Shown here: piece by piece, positions 3,001 to 55,959 of the stretch
Numbering within the stretch: position 1 is the stretch's first letter
Layout: each line of letters starts with the position of its first letter
NCBI GenBank assembly: GCA_000091205.1
Contig: AP006501.2
Origin: Cyanidioschyzon merolae
Lineage: Eukaryota
Length of the DNA stretch: 64,000 bases
Direction: 5' to 3' (one strand)
Program-made: the position numbers and the translations under genes
Notes under the pieces: generated by a model
What the model saw: only the letters and a program-made list of their open reading frames with translations
Databases searched by the model: none
Told to the model about the DNA's origin: nothing

Positions 3001-3454
3001 CCCAAGTCCGAAACAACATCCGAATACGTGAACCGTACGATCATCAGTACCATGGTGTCCTACCACGTTCTCGCCGGCGTCTAGACGCGCGCCCGTGCAG
3101 TGTTGAGTCTCGGATGCGCGGGCGTGTGCAGTTCCATCTGAATCATGAACAAGTCTGAACTTTCATAGATAATCTTGAACGGAGCGTTTCTTCATCCGGC
3201 ATGCGATGCGATGCGCTGCGCCGAGCCCCAACCAGAAACGCCTCCAGCTCCCGTTGATCCGCGAAACACTCGTACTCGCGGCTCGCCGCGCGAACAGCCA
3301 TTCATGGTGTGCCGCAGAATTCGCAACAGCTCCTTGACGTCCTGTATCCAAAACGTCTGGAGCGCTAGCACGGCGCTTGCGTACAAGTCTCTAGCAAGGC
3401 AGTTGCACCTGCAACCGCGCAAAGCCTTCAACCGCGAATGGTAACACCTGAAGC

Positions 3455-20179: not shown

Positions 20180-21192
20180 TATTCGGCAGGGTAGCATACA
20201 TGTAACCGCTCTCATCCATATCCGTTTTCTCGCACCCAGACGCACTGGGTGGCCTGTGGAACTAAACCTCCATCTTCTCATGTATATATCTACGGTTTCT
20301 CAAGTATCTTCCCGTCAACCTCTCTAAAGGCGGGGCAGCATACATGGAACCGCTATCATCCATATCCGTTTTCTCGCACCCAGACGCACTGGGTGGCCTG
20401 TGGAACTAAACCTCCATCTTCTCATGTATATATCTACGGTTTCTCAAGTATCTTCCCGTCAACCTCTCTAAAGGCGGGGCAGCATACATGGAACCGCTAT
20501 CATCCATACCCGTTTTCTCGCACCCAGACGCACTGGGTGGCCTGTGGAACTAAACCTCCATCTTCTCATGTATATATCTACGGTTTCTCAAGTATCTTCC
20601 CGTCAACCTCTCCGAAGGCGGGGCAGCATACATGGAACCGCTATCATCCATATCCGTTTTCTCGCACCCAGACGCACTGGGTGGCCTGTGGAACTAAACC
20701 TCCATCTTCTCATGTATATATCTACGGTTTCTCAAGTATCTTCCCGTCAACCTCTCCGAAGGCGGGGCAGCATACATGGAACCGCTATCATCCATATCCG
20801 TTTTCTGGCACCCAGACGCACTGGGTGGCCTGTGGAACTAAACCTCCATCTTCTCATGTATATATCTACGGTTTCTCAAGTATCTTCCCGTCAACCTCTC
20901 CGAAGGCGGGGCAGCATACATGTAACCGCTATCATCCATATCCGTTTTCTCGCACCCAGACGCACTGGGTGGCCTGTGGAACTAAACCTCCATCTTCTCA
21001 TGTATATATCTACGGTTTCTCAAGTATCTTCCCGTCAACCTCTCCGAAGGCGGGGCAGCATACATGGAACCGCTATCATCCATACCCGTTTTCTGGCACC
21101 CAGACGCACTGGGTGGCCTGTGGAACTAAACCTCCATCTTCTCATGTATATATCTACGGTTTCTCAAGTATCTTCCCGTCAACCTCTCCGAA
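20180..21192. repeat. Tandem array (minisatellite-like) of a 144-bp unit in about 7 copies at high identity.
   Basis: The unit cgcacccagacgcactgggtggcctgtggaactaaacc...catatccgttttct recurs at 20231, 20375, 20519, 20663, 20807, 20951 and 21095, an exact 144-bp period. Because the period is a multiple of 3, it produces artefactual read-through ORFs in two frames (20249..21208 and 20544..21269). Confidence 0.9.
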
Positions 21193-22264
21193 GCGCGGAC
21201 GCCCATAGACCGAAGCTTGCCTCGACGTTCTCTCCCGTGCTCGATCAGAGCCGCAACATATCCGCATAGTGTTGGTGCAGGTTGATGACGAGTTGTCAAA
21301 GGACAATGTCATGGCCGCAACCGATGTGTCTATGGACCAACGAGCATGAGAATGGCGTTCAACAACAGACAAGACGTCTTCGTCTGGATTGAGCCAGGCA
21401 GAACAGGAGTGCACGAAAAGCATCCCAATGCTGATATCTGATGAATGCCCGGGGACCGCTTTGGGGTAATAGAAAGCGACGCTGCCTAGGAGTTGGACAA
21501 AAGAATGCGGTATGAAGATCCCGAGAACTGATTTGACAAAGGATGATCTGATCCATGCGTCTGTGCATTTGGCGATTTGTAGACGATAACCCATTTTCTA
21601 ACAGCAGCCAGGTCTAATGTTATCGTCCTTTCCGCGTTTCTCCTCTTCATCAGCCGCGGTTGATAGCTCTCTGAGCCCCAGTATACAGGTCGGCAATGTC
21701 TCCCGAGTTTATTCTAATCAAGCGAGGCGAGTATCCGGCCGGCATGAGGTACGCGTTCGTGCTCCAGAGCGACATCGACGGTGTGTTGTTCAACGCGCGT
21801 AAGTCTTCCACAAAAGCGCTCTCCTTCCGTTATCCATCCGTGTCTCTTCATCACAGTTCGTCTCTAGGGAAATGGAACTTCACATCCTGCAGATTCTCTG
21901 GTTGTTGTTCTTAAAGAACGAATCGAATGAAATTCATTGACGAGTTGACAGACGTTTATATAGAATTTGATATGTTCGGTTTTGGCAACGCGGCGTTTAA
22001 GATACGGACGAGGTTCAGGTTGGTTCATGCACTTGCTGGCCTCAGAGTGGCCGACTTGTATCGCTGTGCCCGTTCCGCGCAAGCGAACAATCATTGCCAA
22101 CCGTCCTTCCAGCGCCTTTGTCCAATCTACCATACACATTTCTGTTATAATGTATCTGCTAGACAAACAAACAAAAACAACAAGCCCATGTCTCTGAAAG
22201 TGTTCCAGCATTCACTGTTCTCTATTCAACCCTGAAATACGCGCAACAGCCAATGTCCGAGGTC

Positions 22265-23694: not shown

Positions 23695-24200
23695 ATTAGT
23701 GGCGCTGGCGCACCGAGGCGCGTTGCCATGTGACGTATCATTTATGTACATAAACATACATCTATAGACCAATTATTCCTATCCCTCGCAACCGCCGTCT
23801 TGCGATCGTATCGATGATAGAGGTGGCAGTCAGTAGCGCACGGAGGCGCGTTGCCATGTGACGTATCATTTATGTACATAAAAATACATTTATGTACCAA
23901 TCATTCCTATCCCTCGCACCCGCCGCGTTGCCATCGTATCGATGATAGAGGTGGCAGTCAGTAGCGCACGGAGGCGCGTTGCAATGTGACGTATCATTTA
24001 TGTACATAAAAATACATTTATGTACCAATCATTCCTATTCCTCGCATCCGCCGTCTTGCGATCGTATCGATGATAGAGGTGGCAGTCAGTAGCGCACGGA
24101 GGCGCGTTGCAATGTGACGTATCATTTATGTACATAAAAATACATTTATGTACCAATCATTCCTATTCCTCGCATCCGTCGCGTTGCCATCGTATCGATG
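23695..24200. repeat. Tandem array of a 128-bp unit in about 4 copies. Each unit carries a perfect 14-bp palindrome (TTTATGTACATAAA) and a TGACGT motif.
   Basis: The motif cgttgccatgtgacgtatcatttatgtacataaa recurs at 23721, 23849, 23977 and 24105, an exact 128-bp period. The array lies about 0.6 kb upstream (5') of the minus-strand fatty-acid-hydroxylase gene. Confidence 0.85.
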
Positions 24201-24839
24201 ATGCGCCCGTCACCCCGATGCCAGATGCAGAGGAAACGAATTCCATGTACGGAACTCGGGTGTATGCGCTATCGTTGGAGTCGCTGTTCCCGGCATCATC
24301 GACATCTGCCTTTGGAGGCGTTTTTCTGGCGCTGTTTCCTTTGCGCATCTCATGTATCTGGCTTTACATACGAAAGTCTCTGGTTTCCTTCAAGTTCTGC
24401 AATCAGAGGTCAATGGATGCTGGAGCCAGCGTTCGAGTCCCGATTTCGCAGCTTCCCGCTATTGCAGACGCATTTCGTTCACAGCATGTAGTTACGATCT
24501 ACACTGCTCTTGCCATTGTCATCTTGTTGGTATTCAGCTTGGGTGCGCTCTATCTATGGGTAACAAGCAGCTGTGGCCTAACATTCGCAGGTAAACGCCA
24601 AACATCTGTTTCCGAGCACCGTCCTGTGATTCGCGAGCGCTAGCTTTATCGCTCGGCGCATGTCTTGGCTGGTACGCAAATCGCTCCTCAATATCCTTCT
24701 TCGAGTTCGCGTCCAGTGCTGTACCCTACGATCACGGGCTTCTTCTGTGCAAAGCCGTTGGCGAGTATTCTGTCCGTCGCTTTCACACACGAATGCTATT
24801 CGATTCGACACAGAATTGGTGAATTTTCATCTTGTCCAT

Positions 24840-25470
24840 TATGCAACAAGTACCGAAAGGAAGATCCGAACTGGAGAACGAGTCATAATTTTCGATTCGT
24901 CTCCAGATCCACCGTGCGAAGCGGAAATCCACACGCTACTGGTAGCGATCGCTGCGATCACGCAAACCGTTCTCTTCGATCCTTTTCCAGGCAAGTAGAA
25001 GCGAAGGAAGCGTCTGGCAGCATATCCCGCGACAAGTATCATACTGCTGTGAAATCTGGTTCCATCGACGGCCACTGACATGGGAGAATTTATCTTTCGG
25101 AAGGAATCCAGTATTTGCGTTTCATATGTTCACTGATCATTCGATATGGACTTGTGAACAAGTCGTCAGTACATGACGGTAGAGACTTTTCCTCCTCCAT
25201 ACGATTGCGCGAATAGCTGGGCCGTCTGCGACTCGCCTGAAAACAGAGCGATCGAAAGCCTGAACCAACCATGATTCTCGCACAGCACACGTACGGACAG
25301 CGCAAGCGTCGAGGCTTGTACGTATGCATTGGATCATGACATTGGATCGTTTACGAAACCCAGTTCGAGGGCGTCGCGCATCATCTTGATTCTGGTCAAG
25401 TAACGAAACCCAGCGGCAACGCATCGATAAAGCCACACCCCGCAACCAAAACCGAGCATCCTGAAACGAG
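24840..25470 (+). repeat. Dispersed repeat copy A (about 600 bp, diverged), homologous to 38030..38640.
   Basis: Aligned blocks include caagtaccgaaaggaagatccgaactggagaacgagtc...gcgatcgctgcgatcacgc...gtaacgaaacccagcggcaacgcatcgataaagccac, which match caagtaccggaaggaaaccctaggctggagaacgagtc...gcgatcgctgcgatgactc...gtaacgagtcccggcggcaacgcgtcgaagcagccac in the second copy. Confidence 0.6.
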
Positions 25471-25599
25471 GTCCACATCCCTGGTCCCTTCGAGCTGCAC
25501 TTCGGGTCACCAGACGCTACATCGAAAAAACTTTGAAAAATAAACAAAAAGCTGGAACAGTGCAAACACTTCATTGCTCCATTTTCATGCGTCCGAGTC

Positions 25600-28500
25600 C
25601 TAGAATACCTGCAATACCTCATCAATCGTACCGAATATCGCTTCGAAAAGCGCTTCCTGAGGCATGCCGATTCTGCGCGCGATCTCCTTCCGACGCGGTG
25701 TATCCAGAGACCCGTACAGCTGCAACACATCGCCATCGAGGATAGAGCGCTTCGGTTTCCGAAGACCCGCCGCCACCGTCAAGGAACGCATCACTCGCCA
25801 GGAACGGGCGTACAAACACCATTTGCGAAGCTCCGGCTCCAGCATGAGATCTTGGGCGGCGAGCTCGAGTTTCTTCGCCACGCCGCGTAACAGTGGAGAA
25901 ACCATGGTAATCATCCCGTCAACGGTGCCCAGCAAGATCACATGCGTATTCCAGAGTGACGACGGCTCGTTTGGAGGCGGCGTCTCAGCACTCGGATCAT
26001 CAATGCGTACCCGACGCACCGCGTTCGGCCGCGACCCAACATGGAAACCGGCCTCAAAGGTCATACGCGTTCCACCGGCTGACTCGGGATCCACTGGACT
26101 CGGAATACTCAACTCAATGATGTTGCCAAGCATGTCCGCTGAGAGTACATTCGCCTTGGTACCGTGCATCAACCATTCCGATGCAACCAGTTCACGTTGC
26201 GCCTCATCGCGACAGAGGAAATTCTGCGAAACGTTGCGAGACCTCCAGAAGAGAAACGAAACACCATACCGCATATCCGAAGCGAGAATATACTGTTTCA
26301 ACGTGCCAACATGCGAAAAGAACAAATTAATACCCGGATAAAACGATATACAGGACATTTCGTCCTCGATCAGTTTGTAGACTTCGAGACGCGGTCCAGC
26401 GCTGCAGCACACGAAGCCGCCCTTGACCGGCGCAACCGCCGAAACTGCTCCTTTGACTTCGGTTGCGGCAAGCGTCTGCATCTGGTAGAGGGTTCGCTGG
26501 TGCTGATGGTGCTGGCGGCCCTCTTGTCGACTGATTTCAAAAACAAGCAGGCGACCGCGAATGCTGGTGTCCTCACCCCGCAGGAAGCACGTCCCAACCA
26601 CGAGCACGTCTCGCTCTGTGAAACGTGGTGCCTCGTCGTCGCCGGTGCGCTGAAAATGCCGGATTCTGGTTGCACACATCGCCAGCCCGACCTCGGTCTG
26701 TTCGAGGTCGTAACGCGCCAGCACCTCCAGAGAGTTTCGTGCAAGCAATACGACCGCATGCTGGTCGATCAGCAGCGGCAGATCCCGCTCTCTACCCGAA
26801 TCGAATGGGCGAAGTTTCTGCTCTTCGAAAGCCGCCAGCGCTTTCGGTGGATCATCTGCGACATCACCCGCTACGGACTCGTCGACGCTACGTGCGGTCG
26901 TTGACGGCCAAGGTGTCTCTGCGGTACCGTTAACGCCTCCTGGTGTGGTCATTGCGGATGCACCATTCGCGACGTCGTCCATATCCATGGGCTCCGCCGT
27001 CGACGAGTCGCCACGGGCCCGTATCCCTGCAGTATCACCGCGAGACGCTGGTACTCGACGAGCGTCCGCGTTCAGTAGCAGCGGCTGCGGAGGCTGCATC
27101 CCTGATGAGCGCGTGACTCGGACAGCAGACTCCTCGGCTTCTTGCAGCCCTGGCTCCTGCTGTTGTTCCTGTTGTTCCTGTTGTTGTTGTTGTTTGCGTC
27201 GTGCATGACGTAGCATTGACTCATAGCGATTCCCCTCTAGCAAATACTTGACAGCTGCTTCGGTTGCGGGCACCATACGTCCCACGATCGCTAGAATCGT
27301 GTCCGTAGAGGGATCGTGGAGAAGCCGCTCTACGTATTCGGGCTGCGGCCAGGCGTGCTTCTGCACGAGAAAGTTGCCAACGGCTTGCGCTCGGGCGAGG
27401 ACTGGCCACTGCCCAATACGGACGGTACCGTCCGTCGCCACCGACACAAAACCTTGCGAACATACACCCTCGTGGTGCAGATCCGCGAGCGCAAGCAGCC
27501 CAGGGCCTCGCACCGGGTGGATGGTCGGGTATCCGGTATCTCCGAGCACCAGAATAACCCGTTGACCGATGATGCTGATGCCAGACTTGCCCTGGATACG
27601 CCGGAACGGCATCAGACGAATGGATACGGAACGTCGACTGCTTGCTTTGCTGTCTCGTTCAGGTGCGGTTGTTCCTATTGACGTCGACAGACTCATCGGC
27701 GGCGCATTCGCGGAGACACCGACACTCGGAGTCAACACCGTGCTCAAGGCATCGCTACCGACGCGTGCAAAGCAGAGGATCCCCCGGTTCACAACGTAGC
27801 CGCGATAGAGCACCACCTCACCCGAGGCAAGCACAGCCGCCAGAACTGGACATGTGCGCTCGCCGATGTCGACTAGACAAACGTCGAGCACTTTGCCTTG
27901 TCGGGTGCGTCTCGGGCCAAGCTCTCGGCCGTTCGCAGGCATAGAGCCGAGGCCTTTCGGTGCGTCCTCGCCGGTTGTGGCAGTACGCTTGCGAGGCATA
28001 GACGACGACGACGACGACGACAAAGAAGTCAAACCGGCGCCCTGGCTGGGCGTCGTGGTCCGAGTCCCGCTCTCGAGTGCAGACACCTCGAGCGTTGCTT
28101 CACCGGGCATGCGATGGAGCATGCCCGTCGTACCACCCCTGGGTGATGTCGGCGGAGTCGTCGTTATCGTTGTCGTTGCCGCCGAGGACTCTGCTTCAGC
28201 GTCTGCTTCTGCTGAGGCAGCATCTGTGAAGGACGCAGCTTGTCGCGATCGATCATCCAAAACCTGGTGGACGCCCAGAAAGAAACGCTTGCATCGCAGC
28301 AACAACAAGTTCTTTTCGCTGCCAAGCGCATACAAATACAGGGCACCATCCACGGAAACAACTGCAAGCATGCTGTGCAACGCGGGAACGACAGGCTCCT
28401 CGGGTTGCGAGCCTCGCGCAGTCGTCTCGGGGGTACCGTTGCTGGCTCCCTCGGGAGTCGCATCTGAAACCGCGTCGCTCAGTGCGAGCGCTCCATATAG

Positions 28501-31242
28501 AAATGTCTCCTCTGCGCCCAGTTCAGGGGGTAGATCCGCTCCTGCGAGCGCTCGTTGACCTCGACTCAGTGCAGAGGGCGGTACTGCTCGATGTGTCTCG
28601 CGACTCGACTGGGTTGCTGCTGCAGTCGCCGCTGAGCCCGGTGCTGCGGACGCCCCGCGTCTCCTCAAACGCATTGGCCGTCCAGACGTCCGCAGGTTTC
28701 CAGTGCTTCTCGGTGGTCTGCAAGCGGCCTGAAAATCCCGACACAGCACGCCATCGTAGAGGCTTGCACAGAGCACATGCTCCCTACTGAAAACCAGACT
28801 CAAGCGATAAGTCGTTCGTTCGGCCTCCGCCTCTGAAAAATGCTCCAACCTCCACACCTGTAGACGATGATTCGTGAACCACACCGCAATATACGGATCG
28901 ACCACGCTCGCTCCACTTACAGCTGTCCCCGGCTCAAGGGCGGCCAAGAGCATATCCTCTTCGTAGACGACGTCAAGGTTGGCGTCCAGCAGGCGGATAC
29001 CCGTACGATGCACTTGAGCGATCAGACGTCTCTGGGCTAGATTCCCGGCCGCTATGGTCGGCGACGGAAGCAGCACCCGTGTATCTGCGGCCTGTTCGAA
29101 GCCACGACGGATATCGAGAATCACACTGGACTTGGACAAACTCAACAGAAGGAACGCCTGCTCTTCTTGATGCATCCCAGTGCCGTCGTGATCCGCGTAC
29201 AGGGACCAGACTCGCCGACATCCAGCGGAGGGAATGCGTTGCCACTCCCGAGTCTGCACCTGATAGGTGCAGCGTGCGAGGCAGCTCTGATGTTGATGCC
29301 CTGTTGCAGCCAGGATCTCACCGGGATCCAGCAGCGTACCCGCTGGTGGACTGTAACGCGGGGGAATCACCACCAAATCAACAATCGGACCAAGTTGAAA
29401 GATGGTGTCCCGTTGCTGCAATTCCCATTGTGCTTCTTTGGTAGTCGCGTTTTTGTGCAGTGTCCCGTTCTCTGCAGCTGACGTTCGGGTCCGTCGTCCA
29501 TGCGGGTGCACTTGCGTCATCCGGTACAGTACAGAGGAGCCTAAATGCGCCGCCACAAACAGCAGGTCTCGGCTAAGGAGCTTGGCATCCAGGGGAGCTG
29601 GCGCTAACCGCGACTCTCCGCGAACACGAAGCGCTTCGAGTCGCAGCGGGTATTCTGCATCCGCGTGAAGCGCCAGCTGGTAGACGTTTCCGTCGGCGAG
29701 GAAGAGCCCGTAACGGTGCAAGCGCACCGGCGCGATACATGCACCTCGGAAATGGAGCACTTGTGACGTCCTGCAGCGGCTGATGATGTCGCTGTCGGTG
29801 CCCCCGTACAAGGCGCCCGGGAGCTGGCAACCATCGAGCTCCATGAAGGTATCACCAAAATGATTTCCGCTTAAACTGGCACCGATTTGTCCATTGCCAC
29901 GGATCCAGAACAGCACATTGGCGGCGATTAGCAACAGACCCTGCTCTGCTGCACGATCCCATTCAACAGACGGCAGTGGTACGACTTTTTCTGCGTCGAA
30001 TGGAAGGCCTTGGATTCGCCAGGCAACGAGCGGCTCTTCACCGGCTGCGCCTGCCGGCAGTGGAGGTAGCACAATCGCCGCCAGCGCACACGAGTTGCTC
30101 ACTGCCTCGACGCGGCCTGCCCAGGTCGGTCGTTCTTCGTAGAGCATGACCATGGTCGGCAGTGCGGTTCCGGTTAGGAAGCAGCAGTCCAGAATGCGAA
30201 CATGACCAAGAAGCGCCTCCAACTCGACCGCGTAATAGTAGACTCGATGCGCATCCTGAATGCCTTGATCCCGCTCGGTGATGAGCAGTTTACGGCCACG
30301 CGTCTCTGCGGCGGGTATCCCGGGGAGGATGCGCTCGCTCACTGGCGTTTCTTGGACATCCTCGGTCCAGAGCATTGCTCCTGGTCCATAGGAGGTTCGT
30401 GTATGCGCGTCGCGACCTGCGGTTGGGTCGGCATCGAGGGCGCCTTCGTTGACCACGTCGTCGCGGATGCCGCAATGGGCTAGGGCAGCGCCCGTACCAC
30501 TGCAAAGCGGCGGTGCGAGGATGTACGCTTTGCGCCATGCAGGCACAACCAGTGCACCACAGCGCCCGTCGTTCCACTGGAAATTCGATTCTCTGGACGA
30601 TTCGTTCAAAAAGTCGACCGCAGCTTCGACGGCGTCCACGCAGGTCAGGGGCCGCTCCTCGCCGTAGCCGCCACCACGGCGCCACATGCCGTCACCGAGG
30701 ACTGCGCCCGCCCTCAAGACGACATGCTCTAGGGCCTTGTCAATGGTCAAGGCGGCATCACGAATGCCGTCATCCTGGAGAACATAGACACACTCCTGTG
30801 CAAAACTGTAGACAGCTTGCGCGTACCAGGTCGCAAGCAGCGGTTTGAACTCGACGATCATGGCAATCATGGATACTTGCCCAGCACTACGCGCAACGGC
30901 ACCGCCGCTGAAGCCACTATCAATAGCGACTAGGAGCCAGTCCTTGCGAACTGGTTGCTTCTGGCCCGAAATCCAGACTGGAGACGGGAAACGACTGATG
31001 GAGCCGATGCGCGCAGCGACCTCCGTCTGTGCCACGAGGGTCAGTGTCCCGCGTGCGTCGACTCGGTACAGTTCCAGCCGGTTCAGGTGCGCTACGACCA
31101 GATCAAGCGGCTCGAGCTCGGTTGCCTCTTCCGCGGACTCGGACGCTGGGCTTCCCGAGTGCACGAGCTCGGGGGCAAAGCGCCCGCTCGCCACCGCCAC
31201 GGCACGCGACGCGGGTATTAGTGATTTGTGGATGAGGTCCAT
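25600..31242 (-). CDS. CPSF1: Cleavage and polyadenylation specificity factor 160 kDa subunit (CPSF160/CPSF1, of the DDB1/SF3B3 beta-propeller family), 1880 aa and intronless, with low-complexity insertions.
   Basis: The C-terminal block LLGTVDGMITMVSPLL...LYGSLDTPRRKEIARRIGMPQEALFEAIFGTIDEVL matches the CPSF160 C-terminus (IGTVDGSIGLV.PL...YLYLS..ERSELAKKIGTTPD.ILDDL). The N-terminus LDLVVAHLNRLELYRVDARG..LTLVAQ matches the first propeller blade of the CPSF160/DDB1 family. Confidence 0.8.
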   Translation of the reverse strand: MDLIHKSLIPASRAVAVASGRFAPELVHSGSPASESAEEATELEPLDLVVAHLNRLELYRVDARGTLTLVAQTEVAARIGSISRFPSPVWISGQKQPVRKDWLLVAIDSGFSGGAVARSAGQVSMIAMIVEFKPLLATWYAQAVYSFAQECVYVLQDDGIRDAALTIDKALEHVVLRAGAVLGDGMWRRGGGYGEERPLTCVDAVEAAVDFLNESSRESNFQWNDGRCGALVVPAWRKAYILAPPLCSGTGAALAHCGIRDDVVNEGALDADPTAGRDAHTRTSYGPGAMLWTEDVQETPVSERILPGIPAAETRGRKLLITERDQGIQDAHRVYYYAVELEALLGHVRILDCCFLTGTALPTMVMLYEERPTWAGRVEAVSNSCALAAIVLPPLPAGAAGEEPLVAWRIQGLPFDAEKVVPLPSVEWDRAAEQGLLLIAANVLFWIRGNGQIGASLSGNHFGDTFMELDGCQLPGALYGGTDSDIISRCRTSQVLHFRGACIAPVRLHRYGLFLADGNVYQLALHADAEYPLRLEALRVRGESRLAPAPLDAKLLSRDLLFVAAHLGSSVLYRMTQVHPHGRRTRTSAAENGTLHKNATTKEAQWELQQRDTIFQLGPIVDLVVIPPRYSPPAGTLLDPGEILAATGHQHQSCLARCTYQVQTREWQRIPSAGCRRVWSLYADHDGTGMHQEEQAFLLLSLSKSSVILDIRRGFEQAADTRVLLPSPTIAAGNLAQRRLIAQVHRTGIRLLDANLDVVYEEDMLLAALEPGTAVSGASVVDPYIAVWFTNHRLQVWRLEHFSEAEAERTTYRLSLVFSREHVLCASLYDGVLCRDFQAACRPPRSTGNLRTSGRPMRLRRRGASAAPGSAATAAATQSSRETHRAVPPSALSRGQRALAGADLPPELGAEETFLYGALALSDAVSDATPEGASNGTPETTARGSQPEEPVVPALHSMLAVVSVDGALYLYALGSEKNLLLLRCKRFFLGVHQVLDDRSRQAASFTDAASAEADAEAESSAATTTITTTPPTSPRGGTTGMLHRMPGEATLEVSALESGTRTTTPSQGAGLTSLSSSSSSSMPRKRTATTGEDAPKGLGSMPANGRELGPRRTRQGKVLDVCLVDIGERTCPVLAAVLASGEVVLYRGYVVNRGILCFARVGSDALSTVLTPSVGVSANAPPMSLSTSIGTTAPERDSKASSRRSVSIRLMPFRRIQGKSGISIIGQRVILVLGDTGYPTIHPVRGPGLLALADLHHEGVCSQGFVSVATDGTVRIGQWPVLARAQAVGNFLVQKHAWPQPEYVERLLHDPSTDTILAIVGRMVPATEAAVKYLLEGNRYESMLRHARRKQQQQQEQQEQQQEPGLQEAEESAVRVTRSSGMQPPQPLLLNADARRVPASRGDTAGIRARGDSSTAEPMDMDDVANGASAMTTPGGVNGTAETPWPSTTARSVDESVAGDVADDPPKALAAFEEQKLRPFDSGRERDLPLLIDQHAVVLLARNSLEVLARYDLEQTEVGLAMCATRIRHFQRTGDDEAPRFTERDVLVVGTCFLRGEDTSIRGRLLVFEISRQEGRQHHQHQRTLYQMQTLAATEVKGAVSAVAPVKGGFVCCSAGPRLEVYKLIEDEMSCISFYPGINLFFSHVGTLKQYILASDMRYGVSFLFWRSRNVSQNFLCRDEAQRELVASEWLMHGTKANVLSADMLGNIIELSIPSPVDPESAGGTRMTFEAGFHVGSRPNAVRRVRIDDPSAETPPPNEPSSLWNTHVILLGTVDGMITMVSPLLRGVAKKLELAAQDLMLEPELRKWCLYARSWRVMRSLTVAAGLRKPKRSILDGDVLQLYGSLDTPRRKEIARRIGMPQEALFEAIFGTIDEVLQVF

Positions 31243-31905
31243 TTCGCTGTCCTACTCGTATTCAAAGGACACGAGGACCGTTCCCGATCCGCAGCGGAGC
31301 GCCCTGCCACCCCAAGAAGCGACGTCAGTAGGAGATTGCCGGGAACATGAGCATACGCGTCGACCTGCGCAGCCGGCAGGCACAGCAGCGGCTTGCGCGT
31401 AGCGTCCTGTGGAGAGGTGTCCATTTATGGAAGTAAAATCCCTAAATGTATACTATAATCCCAACTCCCTGGATGAAACGGCCAGGTCAGCGGCTGCTCT
31501 GCTAGACGCTTTCGCGGTACGCTGGGGTGCAGCGCGTCTCGGATGGGTAGTACGACTGACGGATGCTTCTCGTCACGGATCGGCGAAACGAGTCCATCGA
31601 CAAGGGATACATGATCGCGCTATTGATATGGGCATCGCGGGGAGCGCTTATCACTCTTGATTTCACCGTGAATTTCCATGTGCTTCCATGCGTACTTGGC
31701 CTGGAATATGATGCTGATTTCATTCGCTCTACCAGTACCTGGACAAATGCATCGACGAATGCACCGCACATGATCCCCAGCGCAGTGTACCCGTTTGTGA
31801 TGCCCGATCCTTTCTCCCCAGCGGCAGCATCATCGACGCACACCATGGCGAGGTCAGCGGTGCGCTGATCCCGCTGGTTCCGTTCGCAGCAACTCGGAAG
31901 CGTTC

Positions 31906-34059: not shown

Positions 34060-34300
34060 GAGAGACCCTGTCCGTAAACATATACATCCAAAAAACTGTA
34101 AATAGGGGAACGCGTATTCCATCAGAACGAGCCTACGTCCGTAAACATAACCATCCAAGAATGTATGAATAGGAGCAAACGTATTCCGTCAGAACGAGCC
34201 TATGTCCGTAAACATAACCATCCAAAAAACTGTAAATAGGGGAACGCGTATCCCGTCAGTCAGAGACCCTGTCCATAAGCACAACCATCCAGGAACGGAT
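34060..34300. repeat. Tandem repeat of a 67-bp unit in about 3.5 copies, located in the 5' flank of the biotin carboxylase gene.
   Basis: tccgtaaaca(t/c)a...catccaa...gtaaataggggaacgcgtattcc...agaacgagcctac recurs at 34071, 34138 and 34205, with a degenerate copy at about 34262. Confidence 0.75.
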
Positions 34301-36272: not shown

Positions 36273-38029
36273 AGCTTTGGAATAGCCCGCCGGATCGCCG
36301 ACAGTACAGAATGCCACGTCGTCACCAGCGACGCAACAGCAATCACGTCACGAACACGCATCGACAGGTCAAGCGACTCGCGGAAGCGGCTCGTCGCTAT
36401 CGACGTTGTGGTTAACTGGCGCTCTGTACGTGCAATTTGCTGCTGCAGCTGCTGTACGGGTGGCTTCGTATTCCCGGATACGTGCGTATCCGCTGCAGAT
36501 GGTAGCGCGCGGATGCGGAGCAGGAATCACTGTCGGAGGTGCTGCAGTTTTAGAGGTAGGGACCATGAATCTAAACACAGTTCACCAAGTATGTTATTGG
36601 TGTCGGCATCCAAGAAAGCGGACACTCCTCTGCTCCAGGAAGATACTGCGTGGAATGCGAGCATCGGGAGATGCGCTCTAGTCCGGTTCGCAGTCATAAC
36701 AAAAACGGGCCGCTGTTCGAAAATGGTGCTGGTACGCGTGCTGCCGCCGTCGTGCTCATGGACTGCTGAAGCGGGCGGAAGGCCCGATTTCAACGAGTCA
36801 AGCACTTTGTCGCGCATATCTTCAAGCGAACCTTTTTGGCGTATACATGTGGGTTGCGGGTACTCGGTCTCAGACGCAGCATTGCGCAACTGCATGGGCA
36901 ACGACTTCGAGCTGCGGCTGGCGTTGGTACCTGGCTGCCTCCGAGGTACGCGTTCGCTCGCCAGGTGACTCAGGCGCCGCGTTCATCCCTATGAGCAGCG
37001 TCGAGAATCTCCATCTCAATAGGCTCGGTGTTGTGCACGTACGATCGAGGTGTCATCAAAATGGCCAAGCAGCTGGTAGAAAGGTCTCAAAGAAGCATTG
37101 CGAGTCATCGTGTCACCAGGTACGCCATGCGAAAGGCGCACGCTGTGCGGGACGTGTCCCCCGCAGCGTTGTTCAGAAGCGCCCTGCGGGAGCGTTCGCC
37201 TGCTCTGAGGTGCACACACCCCAGTGTGCAGTACCTCGACGATCTCGATCGAGAGTTTCCATTTAGATTGATCATACACCATCCAGTTGCACCGTATGCG
37301 CATACACGGATATCAGCTAGCGAATAGAATTCGTCACTGCGGCGCGAGACTTTGGCTACTAGCTAGTCTGGGGTGCAGACGCACTGCCCGCATCGAACGC
37401 AGCTCAGGTGGCGTCTAATCCGTGTCAAACTAGAACTGAACAGACCGTCCGACACGGGCGTATGTCGTAAAAACTAGGTCTTTCCTCAGTATCATCAACA
37501 AGAGCCTTTGCGGAACGTTCTATGACTGCTTTCTCTCCCTCCGTCTCATCTCCGACTTTAAATACACAAGTCTCTCCTTGCACCCCGGATTTGTTCGCAG
37601 CAGTCGATGGATGTTGATGACAGCGTTAAAGTCGCGATTTCAATGCTTCCAGCTAGTGTCGACGAATGCGATGCATTAGCGGGGGCTGCAATCGACGCAT
37701 CGCTTGCTATGTCCATCTGATTTTTATGCAGCCTCGTTGTGCCTGTCGCAGCGCTGGCCTTTGAATCCAGCCAGATGTTCCCAAATGTCCAGCATTTCTT
37801 CTCCTCCATGCACCGTTCCGCGGAATGTGAACACCTGCTTCATCGTTCGGTACAAGCCATAAATGGGTACAGAAGTATCCCTTCGATGCCGTGCTCCATT
37901 TCCACATCCGTAGCTACGCCCCATGACCATGGGCTTCCTCTCTGTGCGCTGATCCGCGCGTTCTCTGTCATCGGCATTCGCAAGCGCATGGCGCTCCGCT
38001 CGATACGAGCTTTGTAGAACGCGATGTTG

Positions 38030-38640
38030 TCCATGGTGAATCAAGTACCGGAAGGAAACCCTAGGCTGGAGAACGAGTCGAGAACTGTCGAACTGTCTAC
38101 GCTTCACACGAAGCGATCGCTGCGATGACTCAAGTCGGTGTCGAAGACCCGTATCCAAGCGAACCGAAGAGACCGGACCTACCCATGGAAGCATATCCCG
38201 CCGAAGGCACCATGCTGCTATCGAGCTCCTTTTCGGTCCGATAACCATAAAAAGAGGAAAATTTTTGCTTCGAACGGGATCGACTAGGTGACGTGAAGCG
38301 CCCAGTGCGCGTTCGGCATGTGCTTGGGAACACGACGCCAAGAGACATTCTCGAGTGTATTTCCAGGTGCGTCCAGCGACGCGAACTTCTTCGTCCATGA
38401 GTTGCCATGAAACAGAAAGATCGAAAAATTCAAGAATTCCTTATTTGATCATCTTATATGTAATGCGAGGCGATGCCTGGAACCTTGTGCGTTTGCGTTC
38501 GCTGGTGATATCGGTGATTTCACAAACCTTTGTTCAGTGGCGTCGCGAACCACGTACGTTCCGTTGAGGTAACGAGTCCCGGCGGCAACGCGTCGAAGCA
38601 GCCACTCCGCTAACACGCCAATGAACCCCAAGACAAAACA
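38030..38640 (+). repeat. Dispersed repeat copy B (homologous to 24840..25470).
   Basis: See copy A. Identity is roughly 70-75% in several co-linear blocks. This copy lies about 0.5 kb downstream of the minus-strand BFN nuclease gene. Confidence 0.6.
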
Positions 38641-39168
38641 TGAATCCGTAAGCCCTTATTGATGCTCTTCGAGTCGCGAGACAGTACACATATAGACTTG
38701 CAGAAAAATGAACGAAGAGCAGGAACAGAGCGAGACGTTCAGTGTCCTATTTTGTATCTGATACGGATAAACACGCGGGCTCGGCGCGCGCACTGCCTAC
38801 CGTTCGTCGCGGGGCCGCGAGTCGTTGAAACGAACCAGCGATCCACAAAAGCGAGATAGGTTGTGGGTTTTTCTCCCAGGGTCTCGACTCGTTGATACGA
38901 ACCCGGGATCCTCGACAGCGCGACGGTTTGCGTGCTGTTGCGTCTGCGCGTCCAGCGGTTGCGCGAAGCGCGAGCTGCACATATCCGCTCGCGGCGCATC
39001 CATTGCCAGAATCCATATCTTATCGAAAAGGACGCATTTTTACTGTTCATTTCGGATAAGCTGCATTCGTCAACATCGGTTCATCCGTCACTATCCCGTT
39101 CGTCGATCATGCTTCCAACCCAGTGATCGCCACCTTTCGAAACACCGCTCCGTCCATGATAGCACAAT

Positions 39169-40485: not shown

Positions 40486-41790
40486 AGCTCCGCTCGTATG
40501 ATGTAGCGGTTGCAGCGCGGGCTACAGCACAGGCAGCCCCAACTGACGTGCGCAGCGCGCCTGGGCCCGCCTCCCGCGCCAGTTGAACGATCTCGGTAAA
40601 ATCTCCGCAGCGCATGCATGCGTGTTCGCGAATGCATGCGTGTGCGAGCGTCACGCGCGCAGCGCGGATGCGTTAGGGCATCGAGAGGATGCGATGTGCG
40701 CAACGCATCTGCGTTGGCGCCCCGCTGCGATTTTCGCGGGCAGGTTAGCATGGGATCGTCGGGGAGTAGTGGGGATCCTTCATGCGAGCGAGGAGGTGCT
40801 CGATCGCGAGATTATTCATTGCGTCCGTGATTCCGCAGCATCTGTTCAAGTTTCAGTGGCCAACGTCAAAATCACGACCTGTACTTTCCTTCGGAGGTCA
40901 CGCACAATTCGCGTGTGTCCCAGCTGCTACCGAGCCTGGAGTGCGTGTATGTGTGGGTGTTCGATATGGGCGGCACGGTGCTGGCCAAAGCGCTCGATCC
41001 ATGAATCCCACGTATTATCATGAAACATGGTTGCTGTCGGTACCAGATCGCTGGTATGACTGGGAAGCGATGTGTCGCGGTCGCGGTATCGGCTCGGAGT
41101 AGTCCAAGTCTGGCGGCAGTTGTGCGCTCAGTGCGGCGCCACGGGAGCGGGCACTGCGCGCCTGGAATCAGAATCCTGCTGCTCAGTCCGGGGCCCGTGC
41201 AGAGCAGATAGCTGCGGCGCATGCTTCTGGAGTATGCTTTTGATGGAAGACGACGGGCTGTCTCGTTCTCTTCGGCTCGCTGGGCAAGTGCATGTCGCAG
41301 GAGCATCAGGAGCACGCAGCGAGGCTGGTCACTATTCTCACGCCCGCGCACGATAGCTCTGGAGCATGATCGCCCTGAATGTGGTGACGCCAGCGACGAC
41401 ACAAACGCCCAATTCACGCCCCGTAGGTTGATGCAGAGGTCTGGTGCGCTCCTCCGGTGACCGCGGGTGTTGGACATTTGACGCGTTTAGGAAGCGTTCG
41501 ACCGCAGGCGCATCCAACAATTGATATATCCATATATGTTCATATAGTTACATCTTCGTCGCCAAGGCACAGAATCGTCGCGATACGCTGGGGCGCGACG
41601 CAAGCCGTGGCGCGTTCGCGCGCACTTCCGCTGACTTTCCTTCAGCGCTGCTCAACTGCGCCAAGCTCTCCATGACCAGCAGACGTAACTGGAAAGAGTA
41701 AAACAGTCGGCCAGATTAAAGCTTTCAATCATCTCTCCCTAACAAACCTTAGATTTTCAGCGCACACCAGCTGCAGCTCAATCAAAAACA

Positions 41791-50704: not shown

Positions 50705-52078
50705 CCTCTACCCGTGTTCGTACAAAATGGAACGGGTGCGCGAACACAGGGGTGCACGCTAGAGCCTTGGTCTCTAGCTAGTGGTATCGACACCAGCGTC
50801 TGTGGCAACGCTGTGTGCGTGCTTCCTTTTCTGTTCACTTTCATGCGGTTGTATATTCTCCAGTGTACCCTTTTTTTGCAGATCCGTTCATAGCAGTCGA
50901 GAGACACTGCTAGTACTCTGAAAGTCCCAATATCGCTGGTCTCGGATGCCGTTCTCGCACCCTAGGCATAGAATGTCGTTGCGATCTAGACGCTGCATGC
51001 GAGAGTCATCGCCTTCGCATACAGACAGAGTGTACCACGCTCAGCGGTGACACGTCGCGGTACTCAGGGATTCCCGTATACCCACAATGCATCCCGTTCC
51101 GAAGCGCCGCCCTGTGCCGCGTGAGCACTTCCTTCGCCGTTCCGTGCATGTTGTTGACTGGTAAAGAAGGCTTCTGTCGATGCCTTCCTCCATTCCTGTG
51201 CCCGGTGACATGCACGATGATCACGGGCTCCATCTGGACGATTCCCGCGGCGAGTACGCTACCCGCTGGGCACGCAAGCGCACGCTGCTCCATGCGGTAG
51301 CGCAGCCATGGAATGCAGTATTGCCCGTGATGAAACAAGCACCTGAATGGAACTCCAGAATCGGGATCCAGGCGAGAAATCCAGGACGGTCCACGCTGCC
51401 TTCGTATGCGGCCGTGACGCGCTCATTAGTGGAACCGGTTGCGGCGATGACTGCAGCCCTCGTCCAGGACGCTATTCCATGCAAGCGGAATGCACAGAAG
51501 CTTCTGGGACCATACTTCGTGATGGGCAATGCTTGTGTCGGATCTCGGTTCGACGATAGCCACGGAGAGCGGCGGCTTTGTTTTTTCCAAATGGAACAGG
51601 CTTCCTGACGTAAGCGGTTCCATGAACTCGCCGCATGAGCCTGTGAATACGTCGCCAGCGGACATCGTCGCGTATTTTGTTTCCTCGTCAATCCAGAGAT
51701 CCGCATTGCTGCGTCCACGAGTTGCCTGAAACAGACACATCGAACACCTTGAAGAATGCGTGATTGACGCAGAGGCCAGGCAAGCAATCGAGAGGAATCG
51801 AGGCGACTGCACATGCGTGGATGATGGTATTGTTTTAATGATGCGAAACCCGTGATCGACGGCGCTGGAACTCATCATGATTCCGGTGGTGAAATCGAAT
51901 TGCAGCGTCAGGGAATCGAAGGAGCCTCCACGAAAACACGACCGAAAATATAAAATTCCGCATGCATCCCCAAGCTCTTGTTGCTCTACCTTGAACGTTG
52001 ATGCAGCCCAAGTAAAAAAGATCGAAAAATATCGAAAGATAGACGCAAAGCGTCTAATCCAATCGTCGATTTTACACC
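50705..52078. repeat. Left arm of a large inverted repeat (about 1.37 kb) whose partner is 54587..55959.
   Basis: The reverse complement matches the right arm almost base-for-base. Identical ORF translations appear on opposite strands: 51221..51814(-) equals 54850..55443(+), and 51877..52092(+) equals 54584..54787(-). Only a few mismatches and single-base indels were seen. Confidence 0.9.
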
Positions 52079-53954
52079 AACATAGCTTCTAGCGAGCGCG
52101 TTCCTCATACCAACTGAGCACACACATAATCGCCCGCAAGGACGACGACACCGGTATGATCAGTAAAGCGATAAGCATTCTAGGACCATAGAGTCTATAT
52201 ATACAATCACTTACAGACGGCTCCTGGGCTTTTTCTGACCGGCCGAGTACTATCGGGTTCAGTTTCTCCCTGTACGCTTCGATCCTGAGAGTCTGACCCA
52301 TAAAGTTGGATCGCCTCAGCTCCTCGTGTCTCGTCTCCAGCGCCGCACATCGTCTGATACTGGTGGCCGCGTTGAACTCTCGGTTTTGCGAACGCTTTGC
52401 ATTTATTGACGCTACTTGAATGTACGTTTGGAACGATTGCCCGCACTCGTGCCCTCTGTGTCACCACAGTCTCGTCATTGTTCCGTCGGCCAAACACCTT
52501 TTCTCGTCTATCTTCCTATTCTGCTTCTGCTTCACATCCCCTTCTTCGCTAGCTGGTCGACGAGATGATGATATTTTCGATTTTTTGTCGAACCCGGCGA
52601 CACAGGACCTCAAGGATCCTCGACTTTCATATCCATACGGATCCCTTAGATTTTTTATTTCTTCAAAATGAGTACATTTATTGGTGCCTTTAGGCGAGTA
52701 TATTCCAGGAATATAAAGCACTTGCATAAGAAACACGTAATGTACCCCAGTGTCACCATGTGCTGGACGCTTCAGCGATTCGCTCAAGGGAGCTATCATT
52801 ACGTTTCACCATACAAAACACCCCTTCTATGAGGTCTAAACACGCAGAGCGCGGAAGAATGAAACGCAGCAGTATACCGCTAGAATCCGAAGAAAGCTAG
52901 AACGCAAGGACAATGGTGAAATACTACATTGTCCAATAGGAGGGCGTCGCCAGACCTCAGGAGAAGGTCTTCAATGATTCGACAAAGTGGTTGGTGCTGT
53001 TGGATGAGCCTTCTCGACGAGCGAAACTGAGGCCGCCAAATGAGTCTACCACGCCTAGCACGGATGATGTCGTCGTTTTCTTCAATTTTACGATCTTACA
53101 TACAACGAGCTCCCTCTCCCTGAATACCCAAACGCTCTACGACCGTTTCACCCGAAGCAAGTCTCATCGACTGAAAACACAAACCTACGTCCCTGTGCTT
53201 CATACCGATCGCAACGTTCCAAGAACGCTGTCACTGCTATTTAGGTGGAATATAATCGTAGGTGAAATTGGATTTTTGGGATTGTATCCTAGTGCTTGTC
53301 GAACTACACGAACAAGCTGTTCAGAGACAGAGACGCCCTTAGTGGCTACCATCGTGACTTTCGCTTTCTGTACGGTGGTCAACAGGTCGTTCTCTACCAC
53401 TGGCCGCTAGCAGTCTTTGAGAATAACCGTTTTTGGCACGGAGCACTGATACTTCTCTCTTTCAATGTCCCTCAACCATAAGAGTACTTTGGTATGACTG
53501 ACCTTATGAAAGAATGCAATTCTCCTTGCACTTTTCAGTAAATCACGTATCCTACATTGAATTCGTCCACGATTTAAACGGTACACTGCATCGTGCTTTC
53601 AATTTCCTGCTCGATGCACTGGAAAAAAAGCATTCGATGACAGGCAGCAGTTGTGGAGCACATCTGAGCTGAATGTGAAGTTAAGATACGAAGCATGCAC
53701 CGCGCGTGCGAACATTTGAAGATGGCGCTCGTGGCTACCCGCCTCGAGTACAGGTCAGGTCATCGCTCAGGCCGTTGCACACTGGCTACGCGCTTGACGT
53801 GCGGGCAAAGAACTGGAAACCGAGGTTCACTGGTGAGTGCACAACTTTCGTCGTTCGATTAAAAGGAACTTGAGAAGCGCGCACGTGACGACCGGTTTGG
53901 CGTCGCCTTCGGAGACGCTTCACCAGGGCGATATCTGCTCCTAGATGGTTATCG

Positions 53955-54557
53955 GTGATGACTCTTTCGGGAGCGTCGTCGTCTAAGGAAGCCCGCTTGC
54001 GGAGCCTTCTGCTCAGCTATGAAGACGCTGAACGCAAGCGAGGAAACCCGGTTCCCTGGCTGAAAACGGAGGAGTTGCGGTCACTCCTGGAGACTGCCGG
54101 CGGGGAGCGGCGCGTCATTCTTATTGACGTTCGTGAAGAGCCGGAGCGTCGGGTCTCTGTCCTTAGAGGCGCGCTCTCGCCTGCACAGATAGAAGGGCTC
54201 TTGAATACCCCAACGACGAGTGAGAACAGTGCCGCGCGGAACAACCTCTCCACGGATACGATGCTTCTGGTTCCGTACTGCACTGCCGGCGTCCGCAGCG
54301 CAGCATACGCCAAATCCCTAATGGCGCAGTACCCTCAATGGGCCGCATGCGTTCGGAACGGAGAGGGTATTATCCGTGCAACTTACGTGATTCCCGAATA
54401 TATTGTGGATCCTGTATCTGGGAAACCCACGAGCAGCGTGCACGCTTATGGGGCAAAATGGGATCTCGCGGCGCCATCGTTCGAAACCGTCCTCTTTTCG
54501 CAGTGGGAGCGACTAGCGCGCACCCTGCGCCCGCCGAGTGGTCGTCTGCATCTGTGA
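53955..54557 (+). CDS. Rhodanese-like (sulfurtransferase / Cdc25-type CX5R) domain protein of 200 aa, lying inside the spacer between the inverted-repeat arms.
   Basis: RVILIDVREEPERRVSVLRGAL..........LLVPYCTAGVRSAAYAKSLM gives the rhodanese layout, with the active-site loop C-T-A-G-V-R-S (Cys-X5-Arg). Confidence 0.55.
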   Translation: MMTLSGASSSKEARLRSLLLSYEDAERKRGNPVPWLKTEELRSLLETAGGERRVILIDVREEPERRVSVLRGALSPAQIEGLLNTPTTSENSAARNNLSTDTMLLVPYCTAGVRSAAYAKSLMAQYPQWAACVRNGEGIIRATYVIPEYIVDPVSGKPTSSVHAYGAKWDLAAPSFETVLFSQWERLARTLRPPSGRLHL

Positions 54558-54586
54558 CGGCACCAGTACCTTAGGGCCCGTTATCA

Positions 54587-55959
54587 GGTGAAAATCGACG
54601 ATTGGATTAGACGCTTTGCGTCTATCTTTCGATATTTTTCGATCTTTTTTACTTGGGCTGCATCAACGTTCAAGGTAGAGCAACAAGAGCTTGGGGATGC
54701 ATGCGGAATTTTATATTTTCGGTCGTGTTTTCGTGGAGGCTCCTTCGATTCCCTGACGCTGCAATTCGATTTCACCACCGGAATCATGATGAGTTCCAGC
54801 GCCGTCGATCACGGGTTTCGCATCATTAAAACAATACCATCATCCACGCATGTGCAGTCGCCTCGATTCCTCTCGATTGCTTGCCTGGCCTCTGCGTCAA
54901 TCACGCATTCTTCAAGGTGTTCGATGTGTCTGTTTCAGGCAACTCGTGGACGCAGCAATGCGGATCTCTGGATTGACGAGGAAACAAAATACGCGACGAT
55001 GTCCGCTGGCGACGTATTCACAGGCTCATGCGGCGAGTTCATGGAACCGCTTACGTCAGGAAGCCTGTTCCATTTGGAAAAAACAAAGCCGCCGCTCTCC
55101 GTGGCTATCGTCGAACCGAGATCCGACACAAGCATTGCCCATCACGAAGTATGGTCCCAGAAGCTTCTGTGCATTCCGCTTGCATGGAATAGCGTCCTGG
55201 ACGAGGGCTGCAGTCATCGCCGCAACCGGTTCCACTAATGAGCGCGTCACGGCCGCATACGAAGGCAGCGTGGACCGTCCTGGATTTCTCGCCTGGATCC
55301 CGATTCTGGAGTTCCATTCAGGTGCTTGTTTCATCACGGGCAATACTGCATTCCATGGCTGCGCTACCGCATGGAGCAGCGTGCGCTTGCGTGCCCAGCA
55401 GATAGCGTACTCGCCGCGGGAATCGTCCAGAAGGAGCCCGTGATCATCGTGCATGTCACCGGGCACAGGAACGGAGGAAGGCATCGACAGAAGCCTTCTT
55501 TACCAGTCAACAACATGCACGGAACGGCGAAGGAAGTGCTCACGCGGCACAGGGCGGCGCTTCGGAACGGGATGCATTGTGGGTATACGGGAATCCCTGA
55601 GTACCGCGACGTGTCACCGCTGAGCGTGGTACACTCTGTCTGTATGCGAAGGCGATGACTCTCGCATGCAGCGTCTAGATCGCAACGACATTCTATGCCT
55701 AGGGTGCGAGAACGGCATCCGAAACCAGCGATATTGGGACTTTCAGAGTACTAGCAGTGTCTCTCGACTGCTATGAACGGATCTGCAAAAAAAAGGTACA
55801 CTGGAGAATATACAACCGCATGAAAGTGAACAGAAAAGGAAGCACGCACACAGCGTTGCCACAGACGCTGGTGTCGATACCACTAGCTAGAGACCAAGGC
55901 TCTAGCGTGCACCCCTGTGTTCGCGCACCCGTTCCATTTGGTACGAACACGGGTAGAGG
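54587..55959. repeat. Right arm of the inverted repeat; partner is 50705..52078.
   Basis: See the left arm. Identity ends at gggtagagg (55951-55959) on this side and at cctctaccc (50705-50713) on the other. Confidence 0.9.

Follow-up and report, generated by a model that had tools for sequence, protein, structure and literature searches.

A stretch of the nuclear genome of Cyanidioschyzon merolae, a red alga with almost no introns, contains five copies (A to E) of a decayed repeat of about 1.38 kb, which is very probably an ancient and inactive non-autonomous DNA transposon of the IS630-Tc1-mariner type carrying a remnant of a Fanzor1 gene. The stretch, here called the window, comprises 64,000 nucleotides of contig AP006501.2 (assembly GCA_000091205.1), and three of its open reading frames (ORFs) are identical to the C. 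merolae 10D proteins BAM82889, BAM82890 (biotin carboxylase) and BAM82891 (a BFN-domain protein) of chromosome 19. The original prediction, made from the letters alone, had proposed a dispersed repeat of some 600 bp with two copies at 24840-25470 and 38030-38640 that share blocks of 70-75% identity, and the blocks which it quoted are indeed present in these two places. The similarity between copies A and B is far beyond any effect of chance or base composition: blastn returns five colinear high-scoring segment pairs (24409-25563 against 37603-38731, 67-81% identity) and the nhmmer alignment extends over ~1.3 kb with E=8e-89. The proposed size falls well short of the full unit, as the two intervals cover only the better-preserved, transposase-derived 5' half of A and B. 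Likewise, blastn and nhmmer recover not two but five copies in the window (nhmmer E-values of 1e-55 to 1e-89), which total 6.9 kb or ~11% of its length, and identities of 70-80% are reached in the best blocks only, against a global pairwise identity of ~55-60%. Because the homology between B and D stops where the near-identity of D and E stops, the family has discrete ends.

A majority consensus derived from 17 copies, the features of which are read here on the minus strand of the window, begins with TA followed by CACCCGTGTCAGATTAAAATGGAAC and finishes with GTTCCATTCTATTCTGACATGGGTG followed by TA. These ends constitute a 25-bp terminal inverted repeat (TIR), CACCCGTGTCAGAWTARAATGGAAC, with TA outside each, and the two versions of it in the consensus, CACCCGTGTCAGATTAAAATGGAAC and CACCCATGTCAGAATAGAATGGAAC, agree at 23 of 25 positions. 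TIRs are recognizable at 20 ends of individual copies, with 4-9 substitutions each. The dinucleotide outside these ends is TA in four cases, is one base off in 12, mostly through the transitions CA and TG, and is off at both bases in four.

The consensus encodes remnants of two proteins in succession. The first frame opens at an ATG 78 nt inside the 5' TIR and comprises a putative helix-turn-helix (HTH) region followed by a DDE_3 transposase domain (PF13358; E=1.4e-10, 41.6 bits against a gathering score of 28.6). Both Asp motifs of this domain, AIDET and IMDN, are found in the consensus, but the domain is truncated: the match runs from position 3 to position 117 of the 146 in the profile, the stretch with the third catalytic residue is missing, and the transposase part ends just past the second catalytic Asp (...IMDNIAFHKS). 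One of the blocks quoted in the original prediction, ttgtccat, is the reverse complement of ATGGACAA, which corresponds to the IMDN motif with this second Asp. The transposase part is colinear with the mariner transposase of the element PUl-1 through both Asp motifs and up to DNxxxH, with 21% identity.

The second part starts at about nucleotide 790, in a different frame from the transposase part, and encodes ~180 C-terminal residues of a Fanzor-like protein. It displays the motifs ...VIVGYGTGRGNGGGH..., TTVK-CHRC...CMKC and NRDLNAAINI, and reads ...YRMEQRALACAADRVLAEGIAQKKPVIVGYGTGRGNGGGHRGEPSVPVKGMYRAMKQAF...VDIWEHLTTVKCHRCEG...CMKC...NRDLNAAINI. It matches the zinc ribbon of TnpB and Cas12f (PF07282, Cas12f1-like_TNB) with 28.2 bits against a cut-off of 26.3, and is 46-54% identical (E-values of 1e-31 to 1e-38) to the last 150-190 aa of Fanzor-like proteins, 376-712 aa long, from a large protein collection (P0049 and P0051-P0054), two of which carry PF07282. 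Its similarity to the published CMe-1 Fanzor1 is weak but significant (24% identity, E=4e-4). The signature of Fanzor1 has been given as D-X(125,275)-[TS][TS]-X-X-[C4 zinc finger]-X(5,50)-RD (Bao and Jurka 2013, PMC3627910); the consensus has the C-terminal portion of this signature, TT-VK-CHRC...CMKC-X9-RD, and lacks the upstream RuvC-I Asp. Homology to the full-length Fanzor-like proteins begins only ~60 aa before the TT motif, and hhalign detects no Fanzor similarity upstream of the junction in the same frame (E=0.23). Judged from these alignments, the Fanzor part is a fragment and not a Fanzor gene. A sequence search of the PDB with a protein stitched together from both parts returned nothing at E<=10.

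The family extends beyond the window. A search pattern based on 21 positions at which the window copies do not vary, CGNTNGCNNCGATSAC-N24-TCCANGCRA, finds five matches in the window, with zero expected by chance, and retrieves 60 stretches from JGI metagenome contigs, 37 of which contain copies of the family according to nhmmer. Many of the matched contigs are C. merolae-like, and at the orthologous loci the identity to the window is 99.5-99.7%, a closeness which rendered a comparative test on them uninformative. Clustering at 96% identity yields at least 13 distinct full-length copies, five of them from the window, along with several fragments; further copies and fragments, which had not been selected by the pattern, are found in the flanks of the fetched metagenome loci. 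At least 17 loci are represented, in unrelated genomic contexts and with no shared flanks, and a genome-wide total of between dozens and a few hundred copies is plausible, though uncertain.

All pairs of copies are 52-62% identical and their tree is star-like. The mean identity to the consensus is 72%, which corresponds to a Jukes-Cantor distance of 0.35, with the transposase and Fanzor halves equally decayed (roughly 70-77% identical to the consensus, with one copy at 61%). In the alignment of the 13 full-length copies the information content stays at ~1 bit per column from one end of the element to the other, and all 13 cross the transposase/Fanzor junction without indels. The indel-free junction and the equal decay of the two halves point to a single origin or master copy, whereas the star-like identities and flat conservation point to one burst of amplification followed by independent decay. 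Every copy has at least five stops in each of the six frames and none retains an intact ORF. Mismatches are distributed evenly over the three codon phases (0.41, 0.44 and 0.44; p=0.74 in the longest gap-free block, of 220 columns), the 13-copy alignment has no period-3 signal in column conservation anywhere, and the six-frame translations of a single copy, D, give no Pfam match at E<=1. A protein search with a 224-aa ORF inside copy B returned orthologues only. In their present state copies A-E are intergenic filler. Two irregular arrangements were also seen among the environmental loci. One locus (L005, JGI 3300050388) is identical to the window up to 38008, inside copy B, and then continues into a different copy of the family (~2694-3353) with an internal duplication of ~100 nt; an assembly chimera formed over the repeat and a recombinant allele are the two explanations. 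In L056 (4502-7076) and in L033, which have the same copy, the element is interrupted by ~1.3 kb including a fragment of the repeat CMe-1A (see below), i.e. by a nested insertion.

Copies D and E are nearly identical to each other in inverted orientation (Table 1), and are as decayed relative to the consensus as the other copies. All seven mismatches between them lie in 50724-51264, within the 560 nt closest to the 3' TIR. The tract of near-identity begins 3 nt outside the mapped 3' TIR (6 nt if the TIR begins after the TA) and ends ~18 nt inside the 5' TIR, which is well preserved in E (GGCCCGTTATCAGGTGAAAATCGAC) but not in D. As the tract does not coincide with the TIR ends, it suggests a recent local inverted duplication or gene conversion of a dead copy rather than a fresh transposition. 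The same arrangement is present on an environmental contig (L064). The pair was also considered as centromere-like arms around an AT-rich core, an idea discarded on account of a spacer GC content of at least 0.45.

Among the possibilities raised in the original prediction, that of an old non-autonomous transposon is the one borne out by the TIRs, the TA flanks in the consensus, the truncated Tc1/IS630-type transposase and the many dispersed, equally decayed copies. A mariner-type parent, in which a transposase gene was followed by a Fanzor1 gene, would account for this structure. An internal deletion in such a parent would have brought the 3' quarter of the downstream Fanzor1 gene into fusion with the 5' two-thirds of the transposase gene, and the resulting derivative, mobilized in trans, could have multiplied in a single burst by cut-and-paste into TA sites. 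All copies have since decayed, apparently neutrally, to ~72% identity with the consensus.

Several points weigh against this reconstruction. No intact autonomous parent, with a transposase and a full Fanzor between these TIRs, was found; hence the deletion scenario rests on the truncation of the domains and on analogy, and it is on these grounds that we infer the origin of the master copy as a deletion derivative. The HTH matches, which lie upstream of DDE_3, in the same frame and in the right place, are below gathering scores (HTH_Tnp_Tc3_2, E=3.4e-4 and 21.3 bits against a cut-off of 31.5; HTH_33, E=7.2e-4). Frame 0 of the consensus is open for ~160 codons upstream of the Fanzor-homologous part and might conceivably include a longer Fanzor remnant; we attribute the open frame to chance and codon bias, since it is the region in which hhalign finds no Fanzor similarity. 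Duplication of a TA target site is suggested by the 20 ends only statistically. Finally, the ends of the D/E tract nearly match those of the element, and could be read as a sign of recent mobilization.

Table 1. Copies of the family and associated features (positions in the window; the last row refers to environmental contigs)
Feature	Position	Strand	Basis and remarks
Copy A, TIR to TIR	24211..25600	-	nhmmer, ends by fuzzy TIR match; ~73% identical to 17-copy consensus
Copy A, 5' TIR	25576..25599	-	flank reads ttcTAg followed by GACTCGGACGCATGAAAATGGAGC
Copy A, 3' TIR (degenerate)	24211..24237	-	9 differences from consensus TIR
Copy A, transposase-derived segment	24808..25522	-	consensus landmarks mapped; putative HTH; frameshifts and stops present
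Copy A, catalytic Asp positions	first near 25066; second ("MDK") at 24836	-	consensus landmarks mapped
Copy A, Fanzor1-derived segment	24271..24807	-	CxxC near 24565, RD motif near 24442
Copy B, whole element	37417..38769	-	~74% identical to consensus; start codon 38689; putative deletion junction near 38002
Copy B, TIRs	5' 38744-38769; 3' 37417-37441	-	fuzzy TIR match
Copy C	1728..~3150	-	5' end uncertain (~3080 to 3150); 3' TIR 1728-1751; nhmmer E=1e-55 against A
Copy D	50708..52088	-	3' TIR 50708-50733; 5' TIR 52065-52088, outer half degenerate
Copy E (inverted relative to D)	54575..55956	+	5' TIR 54575-54599; 3' TIR 55931-55956
D/E inverted repeat arms	50705..52073 and 54591-55959		repeat search; 1,369 nt, 99.5% identity, 2.5 kb apart
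CMe-1A fragment	826-1572	-	nhmmer
CMe-1A fragment	52146-52728	-	nhmmer
CMe-1A fragment	59952-60266	-	nhmmer
CMe-1A fragment	31583-31733	+	nhmmer, weak
Full-length Fanzor-like genes, L069-L073	JGI 3300028372, 3300031394, 3300031211, 3300031607; ENA ERZ27316253		610-712 aa

The joint presence of transposase and Fanzor sequences could also mean that the family is a natural compact autonomous element encoding a single protein, with an IS630-type N-terminus and a TnpB-type C-terminus, and no deletion chimera at all. The arrangement is identical in every copy, and AIDET, IMDN and NRD fall at ~150, 227 and 359 of the stitched 418-aa query, a spacing which resembles that of the D/E/D motifs of the TnpB RuvC domain. 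However, no natural protein in the database search spans both halves, the matches covering 31-48% of the query, the DDE_3 match goes no further than position 117 of the 146 in the profile, and the halves are in different consensus frames; we consider such a protein very unlikely. The probability is slighter still that the copies belong to CMe-1A, an element of 3,169 bp with ~150 copies, ~80% identical to their consensus, which has no TIRs and encodes a Fanzor1 (Bao and Jurka 2013, PMC3627910). An old and abundant Fanzor repeat has indeed been described in C. merolae (PMC1955436, PMC3627910), and Fanzor1-type sequence is common to both families. Moreover, the published CMe-1A consensus, taken from the supplement of Bao and Jurka 2013, matches fragments elsewhere in the window and in the fetched metagenome loci (Table 1). 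Two of the fragments are internally deleted copies directly beside copies C (826-1572) and D (52146-52728), which indicates that transposon debris clusters in the same intergenic islands. Yet nhmmer finds no match between the CMe-1A consensus and that of the new family, the Fanzor parts are only as similar as stated above (24%, E=4e-4), and CMe-1A has neither the 25-bp TIRs nor the transposase part. On these sequence comparisons the new family is distinct from CMe-1A.

The original prediction had further considered a conserved 3'-flanking regulatory or noncoding RNA element. In this form the copies would be functional non-coding units selected downstream of genes, as long noncoding RNAs, antisense transcripts or regulatory or terminator modules. 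The full length is kept with few indels despite a pairwise divergence of ~45%, copy A constitutes the 3' flank of CPSF160 from its stop codon on, a hairpin, with stems that differ in sequence, can be formed by several copies close to the 3' TIR, and the repeats of this genome have been reported to be transcribed (Nozaki 2007, PMC1955436). Against this, no Rfam family is matched, and RNAalifold predicts no consensus pair (0 kcal/mol) in the terminal 180 nt at the 3' end of 15 copies. The flat conservation is what would be expected of independent neutral decay from one master, position and orientation relative to genes differ among the five window copies, and the consensus encodes transposon proteins, all of which makes a selected function very improbable. 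An origin of the copies as cellular pseudogenes or paralogues, through segmental duplication of a host gene, would be compatible with their decayed coding sequence, with the local inverted duplication seen in D and E and with the fact that target-site duplication is unproven. Nevertheless, the ends are discrete, common to the copies and inverted repeats of each other; the domains are those of a transposase and a transposon-associated nuclease; and the phylogeny is star-like, with at least 17 loci in unrelated contexts that share no flanks. Further copies exist, and the relics are of transposon genes rather than of a duplicated cellular gene; we hold this last alternative to be extremely unlikely.

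Certain other candidates were discarded on more direct grounds. The SINE-like (short interspersed nuclear element) nature mentioned in the original prediction, or that of another retroposon, finds no support in the element, which has no tRNA-like sequence or Pol III signature, no Rfam match and no poly-A tail, is too long at 1.38 kb, and has inverted-repeat ends together with a DDE transposase remnant. A trypanosomatid SIDER-like retroposon of the 3' untranslated region (UTR) does not come into question as the host is C. merolae. A relationship to Helitrons or to IS200/IS605-type elements, considered in view of the terminal hairpin, is contradicted by the TIRs, by ends which are not TC/CTRR and by the lack of conservation of the hairpin; in the same manner, a remnant omega/fRNA structure at the 3' end was rejected for want of a consensus fold. 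A multi-exon or unannotated paralogous gene was considered on account of a minus-strand stretch (WLYRCVAAGFRY and WLLRRVAAGTRY) which resembled synonymous change, and was dismissed owing to the stops in all frames and the absence of period-3.

The placement of the copies relative to host genes is variable. Copy A lies between a fatty-acid hydroxylase gene and CPSF160 (ORF 25600..31242 on the minus strand, 1880 aa), and copy B between the genes for biotin carboxylase and the BFN-domain protein, 400 nt from the stop of the latter, in an interval with no annotated protein. These two copies are downstream of minus-strand genes, as had been proposed, but C is upstream of a plus-strand gene and D and E stand in other relations to genes, so that there is no general 3'-flank rule for the family. 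The copies had also been taken to be antisense to the adjacent genes; the coding remnants of A and B are in fact on the minus strand, as are CPSF160 and BFN, so that these elements are in sense orientation to both genes. Copy A directly adjoins the CPSF160 stop codon: the TA (25601-25602) which flanks the 5' TIR is part of the TAG at 25600-25602, a codon that coincides with this flank and the first base of the TIR. As the element starts at the stop codon, the 3' UTR of CPSF160 must lie inside it, and insertion of copy A may have set the present C-terminus of CPSF160. Only 9 nt separate the 3' TIR of copy A from the end of a tandem array at 23708-24202 (3.9 units of 128 bp, 94% matches). Two other arrays are found at 20185-21198 (144 bp x 7, 98% matches), overlapping a 319-aa ORF, and at 34061-34291 (67 bp x 3.4). 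The window also has three ORFs of ~200 aa with no Pfam match, at 40872-41477 (minus strand), 53955-54557 (plus) and 56308-56913 (plus).

The full-length homologues of the Fanzor part (P0049, P0055) are encoded on gene-dense environmental contigs (L069-L073; Table 1), where their neighbors include an RPB2 that is highly divergent, a UvrD helicase, AlkB, ATG8 and a 2625-aa Peptidase_S74 protein. Each of these Fanzor ORFs has, at its 3' end or shortly beyond it, a sequence that matches the 3' TIR of the new family at 19 of 25 positions, and neither a 5' TIR nor a transposase was found near them on those contigs. The RPB2 on one contig has best non-self matches that are 36-58% identical among 5.8 billion proteins, a divergence more typical of the polymerases of giant viruses than of cellular ones. 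These contigs thus resemble those of giant viruses, though the assignment is unproven, and a scan of IMG/VR for relatives of these Fanzor homologues found none. We therefore advance only tentatively, and with some doubt, the proposal that C. merolae acquired a second, hitherto undescribed Fanzor1 lineage by means of a mariner/IS630-type transposon that was exchanged between giant viruses and Cyanidiales. If true, it would represent a tangible instance of a Fanzor-bearing transposon passing between these two groups.

C. merolae is a textbook minimal eukaryote, said to contain 0.7% transposons plus one odd Fanzor-type repeat. If the above reading holds, that figure would be a clear underestimate, as the new family alone makes up the ~11% of the window noted earlier. 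The family is detectable only by profile searches and reconstruction of a consensus, and the intergenic DNA of this alga holds more transposon debris than is annotated. This bears on studies of promoters and 3' UTRs, on the choice of neutral integration sites and on the reading of "repeat" maps of H3K27me3; with CPSF160, at least one essential gene has its end right at the border of a transposon. Red algae would also gain a second Fanzor1 lineage, one physically linked to a mariner-type transposase, which would help in tracing the spread of these RNA-guided nucleases. The element itself is an ordinary decayed transposon of a known kind, which leaves the basic picture of the genome unchanged and is mildly notable in view of its near-transposon-free reputation.

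In its retention of TIRs around coding sequence apparently broken by one shared internal deletion, the new family recalls Ds of maize (versus Ac) and the precursors of miniature inverted-repeat transposable elements (MITEs), which are internally deleted, keep their TIRs and receive transposase in trans; it differs from them in that the deletion fuses two genes, for a transposase and a Fanzor, and in that it is too long for a MITE. With bacterial IS630 elements it shares a DDE_3 domain and a length in the range of 1.1-1.4 kb, and probably also the HTH at the N-terminus and the TA target, but it is eukaryotic and nuclear, its 3' third is derived from a Fanzor and it has no intact transposase. 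A previous survey of the C. merolae genome listed 26 class I and eight class II elements, the latter closest to bacterial transposases, as well as 253 copies of an interspersed repeat, 3.2 kb long, whose truncated ORF bears a weak similarity to WSV486 from white spot syndrome virus (WSSV) (Nozaki 2007, PMC1955436). Since similarity to an IS630-like DDE_3 domain would look bacterial, the new family may include these eight class II elements. The 3.2-kb repeat is probably the same as CMe-1A, given that Bao and Jurka 2013 (PMC3627910) list one Fanzor1 in WSSV. More recently, dispersed repeats were reported over 72% of the genome, in families which are not mappable onto the present element (Rudenko and Korotkov 2024, PMC11050394).

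CMe-1A and the new family reside in the same genome and the same intergenic islands, are of similar age (~80% against ~72% identity to consensus) and possess a Fanzor1-type C-terminal motif. In contrast to the new family, CMe-1A is 3.2 kb long, has no TIRs and no transposase part, and includes some copies with an intact Fanzor ORF; the two have no DNA similarity and 24% protein identity. A different kind of relative is furnished by the mariner-type carriers of Fanzor1, PUl-1, PUl-2, PUl-4 and PGv-1 (Bao and Jurka 2013, PMC3627910), of which PUl-1, PUl-2 and PGv-1 have the layout TIR, mariner transposase, Fanzor1, TIR, with TA duplications and a length of 3.4-4.4 kb (PMC3627910). Whereas these occur in 1-8 copies, the new family is a multicopy, decayed element of 1.38 kb, whose transposase breaks off beyond the second Asp and whose Fanzor is reduced to its last ~180 aa. 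Both nevertheless have TIRs of ~24-33 bp with TA flanks, and in both a transposase is followed on the same strand by a Fanzor1 ending near the 3' TIR.

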